From the NCBI GenBank assembly GCA_963752595.1, contig CAVVYZ010000002.1:256001-320000 (forward strand): a stretch of 64,000 nt of DNA. The letters run 5' to 3'. This DNA is from an uncultured delta proteobacterium. Its GTDB lineage: Bacteria > Desulfobacterota > Desulfomonilia > UBA1062. Positions 5,372 to 14,876 of the stretch are shown piece by piece. Numbering within the stretch: the first letter of the stretch is position 1; each line of letters opens with the position of its first letter. Both the position numbers and the translations under genes were made by a program. The notes beneath the pieces are model-generated. The model was not told the origin of the DNA and ran no database searches. It was given only the letters and a program-made list of their open reading frames with translations.

Positions 5372-6262
5372 ATGATTCAGATAGATGAACGCTGGAATGA
5401 TCTGAGCTCGGAGCTCAAAAGGTGCAAGGCTGGAAAGCTCGTCTATGCTGTCGGAGCAAGTGATCGCGGCAAAACGACATTCTGCGGGTATCTTGCGGAT
5501 GCCTTGAGCAAGGGCGGCCTGACCGCATATATTGACTGCGATCCCGGGCAATCTTTCATCGGCCCGCCGACAACGATCGGGCTGCAGGCAGTGGGATCGG
5601 AAGTTCCTGAAGACTGTTTCCCCCTCCTGTATTTTACCGGAGCGCTTTCTCCAGAAGGCCACCTGCTCCAGAATCTGACCGGAATAAAGAAGCTTGCCCA
5701 AAAGGCAGCTACCTTGGGATTTCAATCTATCATCCTCGACTCTTCGGGTTTTATATCGGGGAGCATCGCACAGGAATTTCAATTCCAGGTCATCGATCTC
5801 CTTCAGCCGGGATACCTCGTTGCCTTTCAATACGAGGAAGAGCTGGAAGGCCTTCTCAGGAACTTTGCCGGATATCCCGGGATGAATATAATCAGAATGC
5901 CGGTTTCAGCAGCAGTGCAGGCACGCAGCATGCGGGAACGATATCAATACCGGACAGAAAGGTTCAAGGAATATTTCAAAGGAAGCCGTCTCCATGAGCT
6001 CCTTCTGTCCGAGACAGGACAGCATGGGATGATTCCGGATTATACCCGGCCGGACACTTTTGACAACCTCCTTGTCGGCCTGTGCGATCCGGAGAACCTC
6101 ACCCTGGCAGTCGGCATTGTCAGGGCATATAACGGGGAGGACGCAATACTGACCGTATGCGCACCATTATCGGATATCTCTGCGGTGAGAACGATCCGGT
6201 TCGGCTCCGTGTATCTGAATACCAGGGATTTCAAGACAAGCTCAGCACCCTTTCGGCAATAA
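5372..6262 (+). CDS. Clp1/Grc3-family polynucleotide 5'-OH kinase-like protein
   Basis: Walker A GASDRGKTT, Clp1-type DCDPGQSFIGPPTTI, ILDSSGFI, lid-like RSMRERYQYR. Confidence 0.85.
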   Translation: MIQIDERWNDLSSELKRCKAGKLVYAVGASDRGKTTFCGYLADALSKGGLTAYIDCDPGQSFIGPPTTIGLQAVGSEVPEDCFPLLYFTGALSPEGHLLQNLTGIKKLAQKAATLGFQSIILDSSGFISGSIAQEFQFQVIDLLQPGYLVAFQYEEELEGLLRNFAGYPGMNIIRMPVSAAVQARSMRERYQYRTERFKEYFKGSRLHELLLSETGQHGMIPDYTRPDTFDNLLVGLCDPENLTLAVGIVRAYNGEDAILTVCAPLSDISAVRTIRFGSVYLNTRDFKTSSAPFRQ

Positions 6263-7308: not shown

Positions 7309-9426
7309 ATGGCAGTCCAAACGCACAACCAAATGGCTAATTTCATCTGGAGTATCTGCAATCTCCTCCGCGGCCCGTATAAACGCAACGAATACCGGAA
7401 AGTGATCCTCCCTTTAACCGTTCTCCGGCGCTTCGATTGCATCCTATCTCCCACAAAACAGGCTGTTCTGAACGAATTCAGCCGGCTCAAGGGCAAGTCG
7501 GAGAACATCATTCAGGCCCGCTTGCGCGAGATCACGGGAGTGCCCTTCTACAACCTCTCCCGGCTCACCTTCGAGCGCCTTCTGGACGATCCGAACCAGC
7601 TCGCCCCGAACCTGAACAGCTACATCAACGCCTTCTCGCCCAATGTCCGCCGGATATTCGAGCGGTTCGATTTCGGCGTCCAGATACACAGGATGAATGA
7701 AAAGAACCTCCTGTTCGAGGTCATCAAGAAATTCGCGTCTCCCGATATCGATCTCTCCCCGGTCAGGATCGACAATATGCAGATGGGCTACATCTTTGAA
7801 GAGCTGATCCGGATCGGTGCCGAACAGTCCAACGAGGAGGCCGGAGAGCACTTCACCCCGCGCGAGGTCATCAGGCTCATGGTGAATCTCCTGCTTCAGC
7901 CCCTCCGAAGACATGGCCATGCTGAGCAAAAGCCATGTGGTCGTGAAGATCTACGACCCGGCCTGCGGGACGGGCGGCATGCTTTCCGTCTCCGAAAGCC
8001 ATATCAAAACGCTCAATGCCACCGCACAGCCCCACCTGTTCGGACAGGACTGGAACGACGAGGCATGGGCGGTCTGCCGCTCGGACATGCTGATCAAGGG
8101 CGAGGAAGCGGACAATATCAAGCAGGACTGTTCGTTTGAAAGAGACGGCTTCCAAGACGGAGAGATTCGACTATATGCTCGCCAATCCTCCCTTCGGCGT
8201 GGAATGGAAGCAGCAGGCCAGGGCCATCATCTCACGAGCATGAAAAGCTGGGGTACGACGGCCGTTTCGGAGCCGGGCTCCCGCGCATCAACGACGGGTC
8301 GCTCCTTTTTCTGCAGCACATGATTTCCAAGATGCGGCGCCCCGAAGAAGGCGGCAGCCGCATCGCCATCGTCTTCAACGGCTCGCCGCTCTTTACCGGC
8401 GACGCGGGAAGCGGGGAGTCCAACATCCGCCGCTGGATCATCGAGAACGACTGGCTGGAGGCGATCATCGCTATGCCCGACCAGCTTTTCTACAATACGG
8501 GCATCTCCACCTATATCTGGGTCCTGACCAACCGGAAGGAGAAACGCCGGAAAGGGAAGATCCAACTCATCGATGCCCGCGAGTTATCCGTCAAGATGCG
8601 CAAGAGCCTCGGGAACAAGCGCAACCAGATCGGCGACGGCGAAGAAGGCCGGCCGGACCAGATCGCCGACATCAGCCGGATCTACGGGCATTTCACCCAC
8701 GATGAGACCTACACGTTGACCACAAACGGAACGCACAAGACGGTCATTGTCTCCAAGATCTTCGACAACAGCGATTTCGGCTACCATAAAATCACGGTGG
8801 AAAGGCCCCTGCGCCTGAACTTCCAGGCAAGCGCCGGGCGGATCGCCCGCCTGGAGGATGTCAGGGCCTTCCGGAAAATCGCCGAAAGCGACAAGAAGAA
8901 CGAAGCCGTCCGCATCCAGGAGATCGAGGCTGGCAGAGAGCGGCAGGATGCCGTCAGGAAGCTGCTTGCCGACCTGGGTGCAGCAACGGGAGAGAGGCTG
9001 TTCAAGGATCGTCCCGAGTTCCTGAAGGCATTGAAACCCCTTGAACATCAATCGGGCATCCGCCTTTCATCCGCCGAATTGAAGGCGGTCCTGGAAGCAT
9101 TGAGTGAGCGCGATGAAACCGCCGGGATCTGCCGGGACGCCAGGGGGAACCCGGAGGCGGACAGCAGCCTCCGCGACACGGAAAACGTCCCGCTGAAGGA
9201 AAACATCGAGGCATACTTCCAGCGGGAGGTCCTGCCGCACGTGCCGGATGCCTGGATCGATCATGATAAGACCAAGGTCGGCTACGAGATCCCCCTCAAC
9301 CGCCACTTCTACCAATACGAGCCGCCGCGGCCCCTGGAAACGATCGAGGCCGAGATAAAAACGCTGGAAGGTGAGATCCTGGGCATGCTGGCCGAGGTCA
9401 CCGGCAGCGCCGGAGGCAGGTCATGA
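7309..9426 (+). CDS. hsdM: Type I restriction-modification methyltransferase subunit M (frameshifts near 7900 and 8130-8240)
   Basis: FIWSICNLLRG, GEHFTPREV, motif I YDPACGTGGML, motif IV LANPPFG, GSPLFTGDAGSGES, FYNTGI, VGYEIPLNRHFY. Confidence 0.93.
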
Positions 9427-9459
9427 CAGGATGCTCATCAGGCCCGCCGTACAAAGGGG

Positions 9460-9488
9460 TTGACTTCCTGCCTGAAGATGACGATAAT
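9460..9488 (+). promoter_or_regulatory. Sigma-70-type promoter of the leader RNA / abi gene
   Basis: TTGACT (9460-9465), 17-nt spacer, GATAAT (9483-9488). Confidence 0.7.
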
Positions 9489-9493
9489 ATCTG

Positions 9494-9553
9494 TAGCAAA
9501 CCTGCCGCGCCTCTGCTTTCGGGCATGCGAAATCCGGTGGGTTTTTCTTTTTT
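9494..9553 (+). ncRNA. Candidate abiF-type structured leader / antitoxin RNA ending in an intrinsic terminator
   Basis: Outer stem AAACCTGCCG (9498-9507) / CGGTGGGTTT (9535-9544) with two G-U pairs, inner CGC/GCG, TGCT-TTCG-GGCA hairpin, then a T-rich tract; lies between a promoter and an Abi gene. Confidence 0.6.
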
Positions 9554-9564
9554 CCGGGGCTGTC

Positions 9565-10464
9565 GTGCACTACTCTAAGCCCCCCCTCACCTTCGAGGCC
9601 CAGGCCGAGCTGCTCCTTTCCCGGGGCCTTCAGGCGGATAAAGACGTCCTGATATCCCGCCTGCACAGCGTCAATTATTACCGGCTGAGCGCCTATCTGT
9701 ACCCGTTCAGACAGCCTTCGAATGATGCGTTCAGGGGAAACACGACCCTCGATCTTGTCTGGTGCCATTACACCTTCGACCGCCAGCTGCGGATTCTGGT
9801 CATGGATGCCGTTGAGCGGGTGGAGGTCGCAGTCAGGACCCAGCTTGTATATCATTTTGCACAGGCGCATGGCGCGTTCGGCTATCAGGACCAGAGCTTT
9901 TTCCCAAAGCTGGGCACTGACCGGTACAAGCGCTGGCTCGATGAAATGAAGGACGAGATAGATCGCAGCCGGGAAACGTTCATCAATCACTTCCAGACAA
10001 AATACGGCGACTGCCATGACATGCCTCCCCTCTGGATGCTCTGCGAGGTCATGAGCTTCGGCAGAATGCTGACACTTTTCAACGGCGTTGACGACAGCAT
10101 CCGCCGCCTGATTGCCCGCGAATACGGGACAGAAGACAGAATCCTTCAGTCCTGGCTAGGCGCGCTGAACGTGATCAGAAACATCTGCGCCCATCACGGC
10201 CGCCTCTGGAACCGGGAGCTGGGCTTCAAGCCGTTCATCCCGAAAAGACAGAAATACCCCCAGTGGCATGATCCTTTCGAAGTGCCCAACAACCGGATCT
10301 TTTGCATACTCACCATCCTCAGATATCTCCTTGCGAGAGTGGCCCCCACGAGCCAATGGGATTGCCGGTTTCGAGACCTGCTCGGCCGCTACCCGGAGAT
10401 ACCGCTCAGGGCAATGGGGTTCCCGAATAATTGGGAAACCCATGCGATCTGGAGGAGGGCATGA
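9565..10464 (+). CDS. Abi family protein (AbiF/AbiD, Abi_2), HEPN RNase-type
   Basis: KPPLTFEAQAELLLSRGL, VNYYRLSAY, YTFDRQLR, PPLWMLCEVMSFG and HEPN motif RNICAHHGRLWN; GTG start at 9565 (the computed upstream extension runs through the promoter and leader). Confidence 0.9.
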   Translation: MHYSKPPLTFEAQAELLLSRGLQADKDVLISRLHSVNYYRLSAYLYPFRQPSNDAFRGNTTLDLVWCHYTFDRQLRILVMDAVERVEVAVRTQLVYHFAQAHGAFGYQDQSFFPKLGTDRYKRWLDEMKDEIDRSRETFINHFQTKYGDCHDMPPLWMLCEVMSFGRMLTLFNGVDDSIRRLIAREYGTEDRILQSWLGALNVIRNICAHHGRLWNRELGFKPFIPKRQKYPQWHDPFEVPNNRIFCILTILRYLLARVAPTSQWDCRFRDLLGRYPEIPLRAMGFPNNWETHAIWRRA

Positions 10465-11779
10465 AAACGTATCGAGCGTATCCGAAATACAAATCTTCCG
10501 GGGTGGAATGGCTCGGCGAGGTGCCGGAGCATTGGGAGGTGAAGAGACATAGATTTGCTTTCACATTTGTTAGTGGAGGCATATCCCTCAACGGAAGAAT
10601 TAGATTATAGGGCGAGGTAACATTCCTTGGGTTTCATCGAAGGACATGAAGACGATTTTATCTTGAAGATACCGAAGATCATATTACCGAAGAAGCAATA
10701 AAGCAGAGTGCAACAGATCTCATTCCCAAGAATAATATATTGGTTGTAATGCGATCCGGAATTTTACGACATTCTATACCTGCTTGTGTAACTAGGCGGG
10801 ATATGACTATTAACCAGGATATCAAAGCTTTTATTCCGGTAGTTCCAATACTCCCATGCTTTCTATGCACGATTTATTGAAGGTAATCAAAGTCAGCTCT
10901 TAACGGAATGGCGAAAAGAAGGAGCAACTGTTGAAAGCCTTGATATGGAACTGATTAATAATTTTGATGTCATCCTCCCATCCTCTCCCGAACAGCAAGC
11001 CATAGCCGCATTCCTCGACTGCGAGACGGGGAGGATTGATGCGCTGGTGGAGAAGAAGGAACGCCTCATCGAACTATTGCGGGAAAAGCGCTCGGCCCTC
11101 ATCTCTCAAGCCGTCACCAAGGGGCTTGATCCATCGGTGAAACTAAAACCTTCCTGGGTGGAATGGCTCGGCGATGTGCCGGAACATTGGGAAGTGAAAA
11201 AAGGGAAATATATAGGTTCCTTACAGAAGCACCCCAAGTGTTACAGAGGAAGAGCAAAATGAAGATGAAGGAACTTTATTTTATATAAAAGTTGAAGACT
11301 TAAATACACTTGAGAACCATGTGTATTTTTCCAAGTCAGCAATTTATTGTATTAAAAATAAAACACCCTTTGTGAATAATGCGTTGATTTTTCCTAAAAG
11401 GGGTGCGGCAATATTTACAAATAAAGTCTCCATCTTAATGAATAGAGCTTTGCTTGACCCTAATATGATGGGCTGGCAAATAAAAAGCTCCCTCGAAATT
11501 AAGTTCTATTACTATGCACTGATTGCCCGCCGCTTAGATGATTTAGCTGATACATCAACAGTTCCTCAAATAAATAATAAACACATATATCCTGAAAATT
11601 TCCCTCTCCCCCCTCTCCCAGAGCAACAAGCCATCGCCGCTTTCCTCGACCGCGAAACAGCCAAGATCGACACCCTCATCGCCAAGGTGGAAACAGCCAT
11701 TGCAAAGTTGAAGGAGTACCGCATCGCCCTCATCAGCGCGGCGGTCACGGGTAAGATCGACATCCGGGAGGCCGCATGA
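10461..11779 (+). CDS. hsdS: Type I restriction-modification specificity subunit S (several apparent frameshifts)
   Basis: [21 protein letters not shown] and [14 protein letters not shown] repeats, [11 protein letters not shown] twice, C-terminal [18 protein letters not shown]; two AT-rich TRDs. Confidence 0.92.
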
Positions 11780-14700
11780 AGGCAACCACGGAAAAGGCTT
11801 TTGAAGCCTATATCGAGGAAACCCTGAACAGAAATGGTTGGGAGGAGTGCTCCAACCTGCTCTGGGACAAGAAGCGGGCGCTTTTCCCGGACGTGGTAGT
11901 CCGGTTTATCAAGGATACCCAGGTCGGCCTCTGGACGCAGATGGACAAGCTCCATGGGAGCGAGCTGGGGCAGAAGCTCATCGAGGCCCTGGTCAAGGAA
12001 CGCGCCGCCAAGGGGACCGTCCATATCCTCCGCCACGGCTTCAAGTTCTACGGCAAGACCTTCCGCATGGGGTTATTTCAAGCCTGCCCACGGTCTCAAT
12101 CAGGAAACGCTTGCGCTGTTCCGGAAAAACCTCCTGACCGTCACCCGCCAGGTCCCCTGCCATCCGGCGGACAGCAGCACCATGGACATCGTCCTTGCCA
12201 TGAACGGCCTGCCCGTCGCGACCATGGAGATCAAGAACCCTGTGACCGGGCAGAGCTGGCAGGACGCCGTCCGCCAGTATAAAATACGACCGTGATCCGC
12301 GGGCTCCCCTGTTTCAGTTCCGAACCGGGGCGATCGTCCATTTTGCCGTGGATCCCAACGAAGTGCACATGGCGACCCGCCTGAATGGGGAAAGGACCTT
12401 CTTCCTGCCCTTCAACCGCGGCAGCCATCCCGGCGAGATCCAGTGCGGCAAAGGCAACCCGCAGCACCCGTCCGGGCATCGCACCGGCTATTTCTGGGAA
12501 GAAGTCCTCGGCGAGGAAAGCTTCATCGACATCATCGGGCAGCTTTGTCTTCCTTGAAACCATCGAAGAGACCGTGGACGACGGCAGGGGCGGCCGGATG
12601 AAGGCTGTCAGGGAAACCATGATCTTCCCCCGCTACCACCAGCTCGATGCCGTCCGCAAGCTTGTCGGCACTGCCCGAGGGGAAGGGGGCGGGTATAATT
12701 ATCTCATCCAGCATTCCGCAGGGAGTGGGAAGACGAACAGCATCTCCTGGCTCTCGCACCGCCTTTCCAGCCTCCATACCGAGGCGGACGAGAAGGTGTT
12801 CGACTGCGTCATCGTCATCACGGACCGGCGCGTGCTGGACCGGCAGCTTCAGGACGCCATCTATCAGATCGAGCATGCCCAGGGCGTGGTGAAGGCAATC
12901 GACGAGGATTCCACCCAGCTTGCCGAGGCCCTGGTGGACGGGACCAAGATCGTGATCACCACCCTGCAGAAATTTCCCTTCATCCTCCGCGGCCTGCTCC
13001 GCATTGCCGGGGCCGAGGACCCGGACAATCCCGACGCCGCTTCCGTCGAACGAGGCCAAGGAGTGGGAAGAGAAGATCGCTTCGCGCAGGTATGCCGTGA
13101 TCGTCGACGAGGCCCATTCCAGCCAGACCGGGGAAACCGCGCGGGAGCTTAAGACGAATCCTGGGCGCAGGCACGGAAAACAACGGCGAGGAAGGGGAGT
13201 TCGACTGGGAAGACGGGCTGAACCAGCGTCATGGAATCACGCGGGCAGGCAGAAAAACCTGAGCTTCTTCGCCTTTACCGCGACACCCAAGGGAAAGACC
13301 ATGGAGCTGTTCGGCCGGGCCGGCGCCAGTCCGGCAAGCCGGAGGCCTTCCATACCTATTCCATGAGGCAGGCGATCCAGGAGGGGTTCATCCTCGATGT
13401 GCTGCAGCGCTACACCACCTACAAGACCTATTACAATCTCCTGAAGGAAACCGAGGAAGACCCGTCCATGCCCAAGAAGAAGGCGATCAAGAAGCTGACG
13501 AAGTTCCTGTATCTGCATCCCTACAGCATCGAACAGAAGACGGAGATCATCGTCGAGCATTTCCGGCAGCATGTGAGGAACAAGCTCCGGGGGCGGGCCA
13601 AGGCCATGGTCGTGACCGGCTCGCGCCTGCATGCCGTTCGCTACATGCTCGCCTTCCAGAAGTATATCGCCGAGCACGGGTATATCGGATATCCGGCCCC
13701 TCGTCGCCTTCAGCGGTACGGTGAAAGACCCTGAAACCGGGATCGAATACACCGAGCCGGGAATGAACATCGACGTGGTTACGGGAAAGAACATCTCGGA
13801 AGGCCGGCTTCCGGATAAATTCGACACCTCGGACTACCAGGTGCTGCTGGTGGCCAACAAATATCAGACCGGTTTCGATCAGCCCCTTTTGTGCGCCATG
13901 TACGTGGACAAGCGCCTGGACGGCGTCCAGGCAGTGCAGACCCTTTCGCGGCTGAACCGGACGTATGCGCGGGAAAGAACCTCCTTTCGTTCTGGACTTT
14001 GTCAACGATGCGGAGGGCATTTTCAAGGCATTCAAGCCGTACTATGACGCGACCACCCTGCAGGAGGCCTCCGACCCCAACCACCTGGAAGTCCTGAAAC
14101 ACGAACTGTCGGCCATGCAAGTGTATCATTGGTCGGAAGTGGAGGCCTTCGCCCGGATCTTCTATGTGCCCGAGTACATGCAGAACCCGTCGGATCATGC
14201 CAGGATGCACAAACATATCCAGCCTGCCATGGACCGGTACAAGGCCCTCGATGAGGAAAAAAAGGGCGTCTTCCATGATAAGCTGACGGCGTATGTCCGC
14301 TTCTACGCCTTTGTCAGCCAGATCATCCCGTATTCCGATGCAGAGCTGGAGATGCTGTACAGCTTCGGGCGCTTCCTGCTTCCCAATCTTGGAGACGACG
14401 ATACGGGGATTGCTTCGCATCCTGAAAGACAGGTCATGCTGGAATATTACCGGATCGAGCAGGTCATGTCCGGGGCCATTGTCATGGAAAAAGGCGCGCC
14501 CTACGGGGTAAAAAGCCCGACTGCGGTCGGCACCGGCAAGGCAAAGGATGAAGACAAACCGCTCTCCGAGATCATCAAGACACTGAATGACCGTTTCGGG
14601 ACCGACTTCACAGAGGAAGACCGCCTGTTCTTCGAACAGATCAAGGAAAAGGCCAGCAAAGACGAGCGGGTGATTCAAACCGCCAGAGCAAACACCCTCG

Positions 14701-14876
14701 ACAAATTCGAGCTCGGCATCCGAAAGATCATCGAGTCCCTGATGATGCAGAGAATGGCGGAAAACGACGAGATCGTCACCCGCTACATGGATGACGCGGA
14801 TTTCCAGAAAACCGTTTTCCCCTTGCTGGCGAAAGAAATATACCAGGGTGTGTTATCGGCAGCAGGTGACCTATGA
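11776..14876 (+). CDS. hsdR: Type I restriction endonuclease subunit R (several apparent frameshifts)
   Basis: DIVLAMNGLPVATMEIKN nuclease motif, FPRYHQLDAV, QHSAGSGKT, DEAHSSQ, FAFTATPK, VANKYQTGFDQP, AVQTLSRLNR. Confidence 0.93.

Follow-up and report, generated by a model that had tools for sequence, protein, structure and literature searches.

An AbiF-family HEPN gene and its conserved abiF-motif RNA between hsdM and hsdS, likely a type III-like anti-phage module, and solitary copies of the RNA in phages

Introduction

Among the described systems closest to the locus analyzed here is PbAbiF with its ncRNA AbiFr (PDB 8VZ6; Zilberzwige-Tal et al. 2025, via PMC12737573, PMC13064643, and 10.1101/2025.04.15.648962), in which R210 and H215 are the pair reported as catalytic (10.1101/2025.04.15.648962). 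The AbiF(Cd)/RCd22 system belongs to the C. difficile prophage phi027, and its RNA was shown to act in trans (10.1101/2025.04.15.648962). Lactococcal AbiF is an established phage-resistance system, and a phage protein binds the abiD1 mRNA and activates its translation (PMC13064643). On the phage side, pseudo-ToxI is an RNA mimic against ToxIN, and a hairpin of phage sk1, which is unlike AbiFr, inhibits AbiF (PMC13064643); the Racrs are solitary phage repeats that serve as RNA mimics (PMC10651486). An abiF sRNA was described in cyanophage S-CREM1, and three phage genomes are among the Rfam members (PMC9964418, section 3.5).

We analyzed a locus in a 64,000-nt stretch of DNA from an uncultured delta proteobacterium, referred to here as the window. 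An AbiF HEPN gene and its own conserved abiF-motif RNA lie between hsdM and hsdS, and the two very probably form a type III-like anti-phage module of RNA antitoxin and RNase toxin. The system type has already been published, and the locus is a new member of it.

The protein is equal in length to PbAbiF and 34% identical to it, its model matches the PbAbiF structure with a TM score of 0.88, R205/H210 correspond to R210/H215, and one structured RNA lies upstream. Unlike the PbAbiF gene, the window gene is inside a type I restriction-modification (RM) operon and has a stop/start overlap with hsdS. The window RNA differs from the Prevotella-type copies, which were compared in place of PbAbiFr itself, in its core and bulge variant and in a longer apical stem. 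With AbiF(Cd)/RCd22 the locus shares its own promoter, a short terminated abiF-motif RNA, and read-through into an Abi_2 gene, all of these being sequence-based predictions on the side of the window. RCd22 has two motifs and a separate terminator and is sited in a lysis module, whereas the window has a single motif, itself the predicted terminator, sited in an RM operon. In contrast to the classical type III toxin-antitoxin systems (ToxIN, CptIN, and TenpIN), there is neither a tandem-repeat pseudoknot antitoxin nor a ToxN-like toxin; the RNA is a single copy with a nested fold, and the fold search matches AbiF only. By analogy, the module would be type III-like in its working, but it lies outside these three families.

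The abiF gene lies within a type I RM operon

Pfam and PADLOC place the abiF gene (9565..10464; all features given here are on the + strand of the window) between hsdM and hsdS, in agreement with the initial annotation, which had described it as embedded in an RM operon. The gene and its RNA are inserted between hsdM, encoding the type I RM methyltransferase (7309..9426; Pfam HsdM_N and N6_Mtase, PADLOC MTase_I), and hsdS (10461..11779), whose ATG overlaps the abiF stop codon (ATGA). An hsdR-like gene in pieces follows (11776..14876), with SWI2_SNF2 and ResIII domains in the piece at 12385-13152; Pfam gives no match for its first and last pieces. Because hsdS and hsdR are downstream of the predicted terminator described below, their transcription, if driven from upstream, would likewise require read-through.

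In the assembly, hsdM is split by a frameshift into ORFs at 7309-8139 and 8320-9426, hsdS is also frameshifted, and all of hsdM, hsdS, and hsdR shift frame compared with the homologous locus L028. The RM operon may be decayed, since its genes are frameshifted; at the quality of this assembly (84% complete, 6.8% contaminated), the frameshifts may also be sequencing errors.

The order hsdM-abiF-hsdS was found in 7 of 51 homologous loci, and likewise on plasmid pT75-VIM. The overlap between the abiF stop and the hsdS start recurs in the RM operons of loci L027, L038, and L511, which suggests translational coupling of the two genes.

Two further observations concern the surroundings. Genes in pieces occur at 195-1209 as well as at 7309-14876 of the window, which suggests that the assembly is indel-rich; one of these broken genes is presumably HtpG-like. 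The RM operon is preceded, at a distance of about 1 kb, by a CLP1_P-family polynucleotide-kinase-like gene (5372-6262).

The abiF product belongs to the AbiF/Abi_2 HEPN family

The initial annotation had claimed an intact GTG-initiated ORF of about 299 aa without frameshift, carrying RNICAH as the HEPN motif of the AbiF family, and each part of this claim held. The ORF is unbroken at 9565-10464 with RNICAH at residues 205-210, and the family assignment follows from the Pfam match, an invariant R/H pair, and the PbAbiF fold. The match to Abi_2 (PF07751) scored 191 bits against a cut-off of 25.6 (E 3e-56), and PADLOC assigned the protein to AbiD (E 9e-73). Homologues of AbiF numbered 3016 among 4158 candidates. 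In an alignment of 40 homologues, R205, N206, and H210 of the motif R205-N-I-[C/S]-A-H210 (10177..10194) were invariant. By sequence, 8VZ6 was the only PDB match, and R205/H210 align with R210/H215 of PbAbiF. The structure model (pLDDT 91) superposed on 8VZ6 ('PbAbiF dimer bound to ncRNA') with an rmsd of 2.7, and 8VZ6 was the sole fold match at E <= 0.001. The protein is an AbiF/Abi_2 HEPN protein with the catalytic residues, and from its sequence and model it is predicted to be an RNase toxin.

A scan of genome contigs with the single protein returned distant relatives only (23-47% identical). In four database proteins (P0014, P0037, P0028, and P0038), the N-terminal extension is the 3' strand of the RNA mis-translated from an internal ATG, and such extensions of database AbiF proteins are a recurring annotation error.

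Promoter, hairpin, and U-tract upstream of abiF

A predicted sigma-70 promoter (9460..9488; 10 of 12 positions matching) consists of a -35 TTGACT at 9460-9465 and a -10 GATAAT at 9483-9488, separated by 17 nt. It precedes a predicted abiF-motif RNA, an AbiFr-like putative antitoxin of about 50-59 nt (9495..9553), whose 5' end was placed from the position of the -10 element and a conserved AG lead and whose 3' end falls within the U-tract. The structured core (9498..9544) comprises helices P1, P2, and P3, a CUC internal loop, and a 3' bulge, and is backed by covariation. In the predicted fold, the outer stem (9498-9507/9535-9544) contains two G-U pairs, CGC at 9508-9510 pairs with GCG at 9527-9529, CUC at 9511-9513 faces a single U at 9526, and the apical stem (9514-9517/9522-9525) is capped by UUCG, with a 3' bulge AAAUC at 9530-9534. 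The U-tract (9542..9553) is directly 3' of P1, and by prediction the RNA fold itself acts as the intrinsic terminator. A Shine-Dalgarno-like GGGG (9556..9559) lies 5 nt upstream of the GTG, and a G-rich run is similarly placed in homologues. The promoter pair and the T-tract noted in the initial annotation are present in the sequence; its nested hairpin is correct in stems, UUCG cap, and bulges but had omitted the U at 9526 opposite CUC.

Within the window alone, neither the promoter nor the hairpin stands out statistically. Promoter-like sites were not above chance (3 versus 2.5 +/- 1.7 in shuffles), the fold energy of the hairpin was unremarkable (z = -1.1 to -1.6), and a strict terminator scan missed the hairpin. 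The promoter and hairpin were therefore judged real from their conservation among homologues and not from the statistics of the window.

Searches with the Rfam model and a new covariance model

Searching with the Rfam abiF model, the check that the initial annotation had proposed, failed for the window copy, which scored 16.5 bits against a cut-off of 37 (RF03085; E 0.82 in a 101-nt search). The match was nevertheless full-length and colinear with the consensus, with the two stems in order. In larger Rfam searches, over 10 kb or the entire genome, the window element went undetected. Since the score is under the gathering cut-off, the RNA is classed as abiF-motif-like and not as a formal member of RF03085. 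It resembles RF03085 in the colinear consensus and the outer and inner stems, and relatives of the window copy do pass the cut-off, both among viral copies and in three genomes with more distant homologues. It differs in that the alignment described below supports an 8-bp P1 and a covarying P3, the latter being loop in the 37-position Rfam match. The Rfam abiF model thus misses many copies.

Our covariance model R1, which was built with the window copy, scored that copy at 70.3 bits and found one RNA copy in the whole source genome. Among 101 related genomes, strong matches appeared only in the two that encode the AbiF protein. Weak matches (26-31 bits) occurred in five others, at six loci; of the three that were inspected, two were plain terminator hairpins and one was ambiguous. 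Three matches were found among 151 genomes of the phylum: that of the window, one linked to the gene, and one before a PDC-S02 gene. At this last locus (L388:1501-2644, genome G123), an abiF-like RNA and a promoter precede a PDC-S02 (PD-D/ExK) gene instead of abiF. One query against 5,426 E. coli genomes gave no RNA match, and of three plasmid matches, one was without an Abi gene.

The RNA is conserved and covaries among AbiF homologues

Homologous loci were collected (135 matched), and 120 were distinct with enough upstream DNA after 10 fragments and 5 duplicates were skipped. By descriptor search, the RNA element was present in all 82 distinct loci at >=45% protein identity, in 26 of 32 loci at 30-45% identity (two of them spurious by eye), and in none of six loci below 30%. 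Alignment A2 contains 77 distinct, mutually related elements from the >=45% group and gives the structure P1 (8 bp), P2 (3 bp), a CUC/1-nt internal loop, P3, and a 3' bulge. RNAalifold recovers the identical fold. Of 1126 alignment cells, 98.8% are paired, with changes on both sides in 10 of 15 pairs. The covariation score was 0.336, compared with 0.159 for shuffled alignments (0 of 500 as high) and <=0.10 when the alignment was slid. The P1 counts are partly circular because the descriptor demanded P1 pairing; the variable P2 pair and P3 were left unconstrained. Compensatory changes are present in all three helices, and the variable P2 pair is AU in 23, CG in 22, GU in 19, GC in 7, UA in 3, and other in 3 of the 77 elements. 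Unpaired bases are strictly conserved across homologues. The apical stem-loop differs from copy to copy in both size and sequence, and its UUCG loop is not conserved.

A promoter-like pair in the register of the window was found in 45 of 78 loci, versus 12 of 648 background positions, and a U-tract (at least 6 T in the 8 nt after P1) in 72 of 78 gene-linked homologues. The proposed alignment of upstream regions therefore came out in favor of the conserved RNA, and the sequence data support the claim of a structured, probably self-terminating RNA upstream of AbiF. The end of hsdM lies within 300 nt in only 8 of the 59 loci with enough upstream DNA, and within 700 nt in 16 of 59. Since most homologous loci have no hsdM end nearby, the RNA belongs to abiF and not to hsdM. 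With its third helix, fully covarying P2 pair, and clade-linked bulge variants, the locus adds a better model of this RNA. The bulge variants cluster on a protein tree built by a quick method from 89 rows (31 changes versus 64.8 shuffled), which is no evidence of co-evolution because co-inheritance accounts for it.

Some loci hold two promoter-RNA units or tandem RNAs (L027:510-570, L106:2182-2239, L008:2573-2622, L048:280-332, L140:1492-1597, and L367), often of different variants, with one abiF downstream in all but L140. These are either stacked antitoxins or relics of cassette exchange. At L131:2475-2538, a second abiF-like RNA with its own promoter-like sequence lies directly 3' of abiF, with no gene after it.

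Solitary copies of the RNA in phages

A first viral pattern was too loose: most of its 120 stretches had no strong model match, and they were excluded from the counts. With a stricter RNA pattern, 90 viral loci were retrieved, representing 53 distinct cores; at 79 of these loci (48 cores), the flanking DNA, short for some, contained no Abi match. The P2 pair that this pattern leaves free still pairs in 41 of the 48 cores; 34 are Watson-Crick, against 16.2 in shuffles (0 of 10,000 as high). Whole-record Pfam searches found Abi_2 in 0 of 45 such viral records, mostly fragments, and in 2 of 2 controls. Sixty flanking proteins from 35 viral loci gave 23 PHROG matches, including portal, terminase, primase, and methyltransferase families.

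A second subtype was found at 120 or more viral loci; among the 120 listed, 2 were Abi-linked, 71 were solitary with at least 1 kb downstream, and 47 had less. Among the matches listed, 1 of 72 viral loci with at least 1 kb downstream was followed by an Abi gene. The P1 partner, which the pattern did not demand, was present in 96 of 99 distinct contexts among the matches listed; in the same set, 72 of 94 contexts had a Watson-Crick P2 pair (30.0 when shuffled), and 20 of 94 had A opposite G at the variable P2 position. Abi_2 was found in 0 of 48 solitary records, including 24 IMG/VR records at least 90% complete, with a positive control; these records were picked because they were long or carried arrays, and many are related to one another. 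In cells, the same pattern matched seven genomes, and in all seven an Abi gene followed the match, at 25-61 nt in six and, as a broken gene, at 432 nt in the seventh. This baseline consists of two partly overlapping samples of 401 genomes, and one matched genome was the chosen centre of a sample. A scan for a third subtype gave 22 viral loci, 3 of them Abi-linked; about 5 of the 19 unlinked loci showed no P1 by eye and are probably chance.

A strong U-tract was present in only 31 of 94 solitary viral copies, compared with 72 of 78 gene-linked homologues. Nine of 49 solitary copies are at least 90% identical to a gene-linked RNA, and the one closest to the window RNA is 78% identical to it.

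Seven complete cultured phages carry a copy above the Rfam cut-off (S-CREM1, S-SZBM1, S-SRM01, PZL-Ah8, CGphi29, Optimus, and T7-Ah), and no Abi_2 gene was found in their whole genomes, nor in any of the nine named phage genomes. In Pasto and PS-1, the motif is recognizable by eye, and both missed E 0.01 in the Rfam search. When three viral copies were compared with cultured phages by BLAST, most matches were due to chance, PS-1 being the sole useful one. The solitary carriers span cyanomyoviruses, T7-like Aeromonas phages, a mycobacteriophage, and gut phages. The cyanophage copies are located in tRNA clusters; those of PZL-Ah8 and T7-Ah are flanked by the portal and scaffold genes and come just after a promoter-like sequence, which we take to resemble a T7-type promoter.

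Among the matches listed, a further RNA unit occurred within 300 nt in 15 of 99 contexts and in 0 of 99 shuffled ones. These arrays, with 2-3 units in gut phages, come from two related phage groups (12 and 3 contexts), and their units are mostly different variants and not duplicates. In the larger group, the units follow one promoter-like site. Further units were seen by eye at L424, L478, L509, L293, and L322, and Rfam found two units in three of five array records, mostly under the cut-off.

Other features were observed near solitary copies. In record IMGVR_UViG_3300045988_037342 (L398:2141-2204), a DUF3800-VIII RNA (80 bits) lies about 300 nt after an abiF array, and no DUF3800 gene was found in this 97%-complete record; it may be another solitary RNA, forming a decoy island with the array. 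A ROOL RNA (270 bits; L340:3869-4451) shares a phage tRNA cluster with a solitary abiF copy. In Pseudomonas phage PS-1, the gene at L386:1-112, about 1.4 kb from a solitary abiF-like copy, carries the annotation of a restriction alleviation protein, Lar.

Phage copies as candidate decoys

We consider it probable, from the comparative sequence data, that phages widely encode solitary AbiF-antitoxin RNAs as decoys, some arrays forming a panel against several AbiF clades. Decoys fit best because the pattern was gene-linked in seven of seven cellular cases and in one of 72 among the viral loci listed, pairing is retained, and arrays hold multiple variants.

The viral copies could instead be relics of lost abiF cassettes, or co-opted terminators, stabilizers, or processing signals that do not inhibit AbiF, a reading that we find somewhat unlikely. 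Orphans or extra copies exist in cells (L388; L027, L106, L131, and L008), and some orphans can be relics, since the motif occurs in cells also without a directly following abiF; many viral copies have a U-tract or lie within tRNA clusters, many viral records are fragments, and the array-bearing phages come from few related groups. However, pairing that the patterns did not fix is kept well above shuffled levels (34 of 48 and, among the matches listed, 72 of 94), Abi_2 is absent from the 24 near-complete IMG/VR records and the nine named genomes, array units differ from one another where duplicates might stand, and all seven cellular matches to the same pattern are gene-linked.

As decoys, the solitary RNAs would resemble pseudo-ToxI and the Racrs, which are also phage-borne copies of a defence system's RNA without the effector gene. 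They would differ in their putative target, AbiF, and in form and setting: the copies look like native antitoxin RNAs and stand in tRNA clusters, behind promoter-like phage sequences, or as arrays of several variants. The S-CREM1 abiF sRNA is the same solitary phage copy; section 3.5 of PMC9964418 calls it only 'functional during phage infection' and makes no tie there to toxin neutralization. In the literature searched, passages of PMC13728456 among it, we did not find the decoy reading. The main text of PMC5737381 does not contain 'abiF'; its supplement and the Cell paper of 2025 may already mention phage copies.

This testable decoy hypothesis is the main interest of the locus. If it is true, phages would have a widespread RNA-only anti-defence strategy against a toxin family proposed as the ancestor of Cas13, and the array variants would map toxin-antitoxin specificity. 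AbiF would then be an active barrier to many phage groups, beaten by an RNA of about 40-60 nt. The cultured phages Optimus, T7-Ah, and S-CREM1 permit a direct test of AbiF triggering and evasion.

Proposed mechanism and alternatives

The type III-like reading made in the initial annotation, of an RNA antitoxin and a HEPN toxin, gains support from the comparative evidence and from the published AbiF precedent. Its observed components are the protein family, fold, catalytic residues, three-helix RNA, promoter register, U-tract, and RNA-gene co-occurrence, which are directly supported, and the RNA likely neutralizes the AbiF toxin. The mechanism is drawn by analogy from 10.1101/2025.04.15.648962, PMC13064643, PMC12737573, and PMC12165695. 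As in PbAbiF and the C. difficile systems, most transcripts would halt at the U-tract and yield an excess of short RNA, and rare read-through would yield AbiF, plus HsdS via the ATGA overlap. The HEPN site would be blocked by two RNAs bound to the AbiF dimer. Phage infection would stop the RNA supply or displace the RNA, and the free RNase would arrest the cell. Judging from the comparative data, phages may counter with expressed copies of this RNA that lack the toxin gene, in some cases arranged in multi-variant arrays. The AbiF-RNA system is central to the proposed origin of Cas13.

The same mechanism might serve mainly as an addiction module that stabilizes the RM island and not against phages. 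Siting in RM operons is recurrent (the 7 of 51 loci and pT75-VIM), and the C. difficile system is without demonstrated anti-phage action in the material from 10.1101/2025.04.15.648962. We regard this as improbable, as phages, including T7-like and T4-like ones, retain the RNA alone, which is hard to account for unless AbiF restricts phages, and lactococcal AbiF is established as phage resistance (PMC13064643).

A third possibility is that the RNA works only in cis, holding abiF expression down as an attenuator or as a leader controlling translation until relieved by a phage factor, as proposed for lactococcal abiD1, the protein itself not being inhibited. The U-tract-terminated fold ends about 20 nt upstream of the abiF start codon, and the activation of abiD1 translation by an mRNA-binding phage protein (PMC13064643) offers a precedent. 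Such a leader is very unlikely, however: a terminator does not need the strictly conserved unpaired bases, phage copies persist without the gene and mostly without the U-tract, the nearest structure is a protein-RNA complex, and RCd22 acts in trans (10.1101/2025.04.15.648962).

Lastly, that the hairpin is merely the hsdM terminator behind a chance promoter match, which the initial annotation had named as its refuting case, is excluded for practical purposes: although the hairpin is 70 nt past the hsdM stop and neither fold nor promoter is significant in the window alone, no hsdM end lies within 300 nt in 51 of 59 loci or within 700 nt in 43 of 59, the promoter register is conserved, the inner helices covary with five pair types at the variable P2 position, and the RNA travels with abiF.
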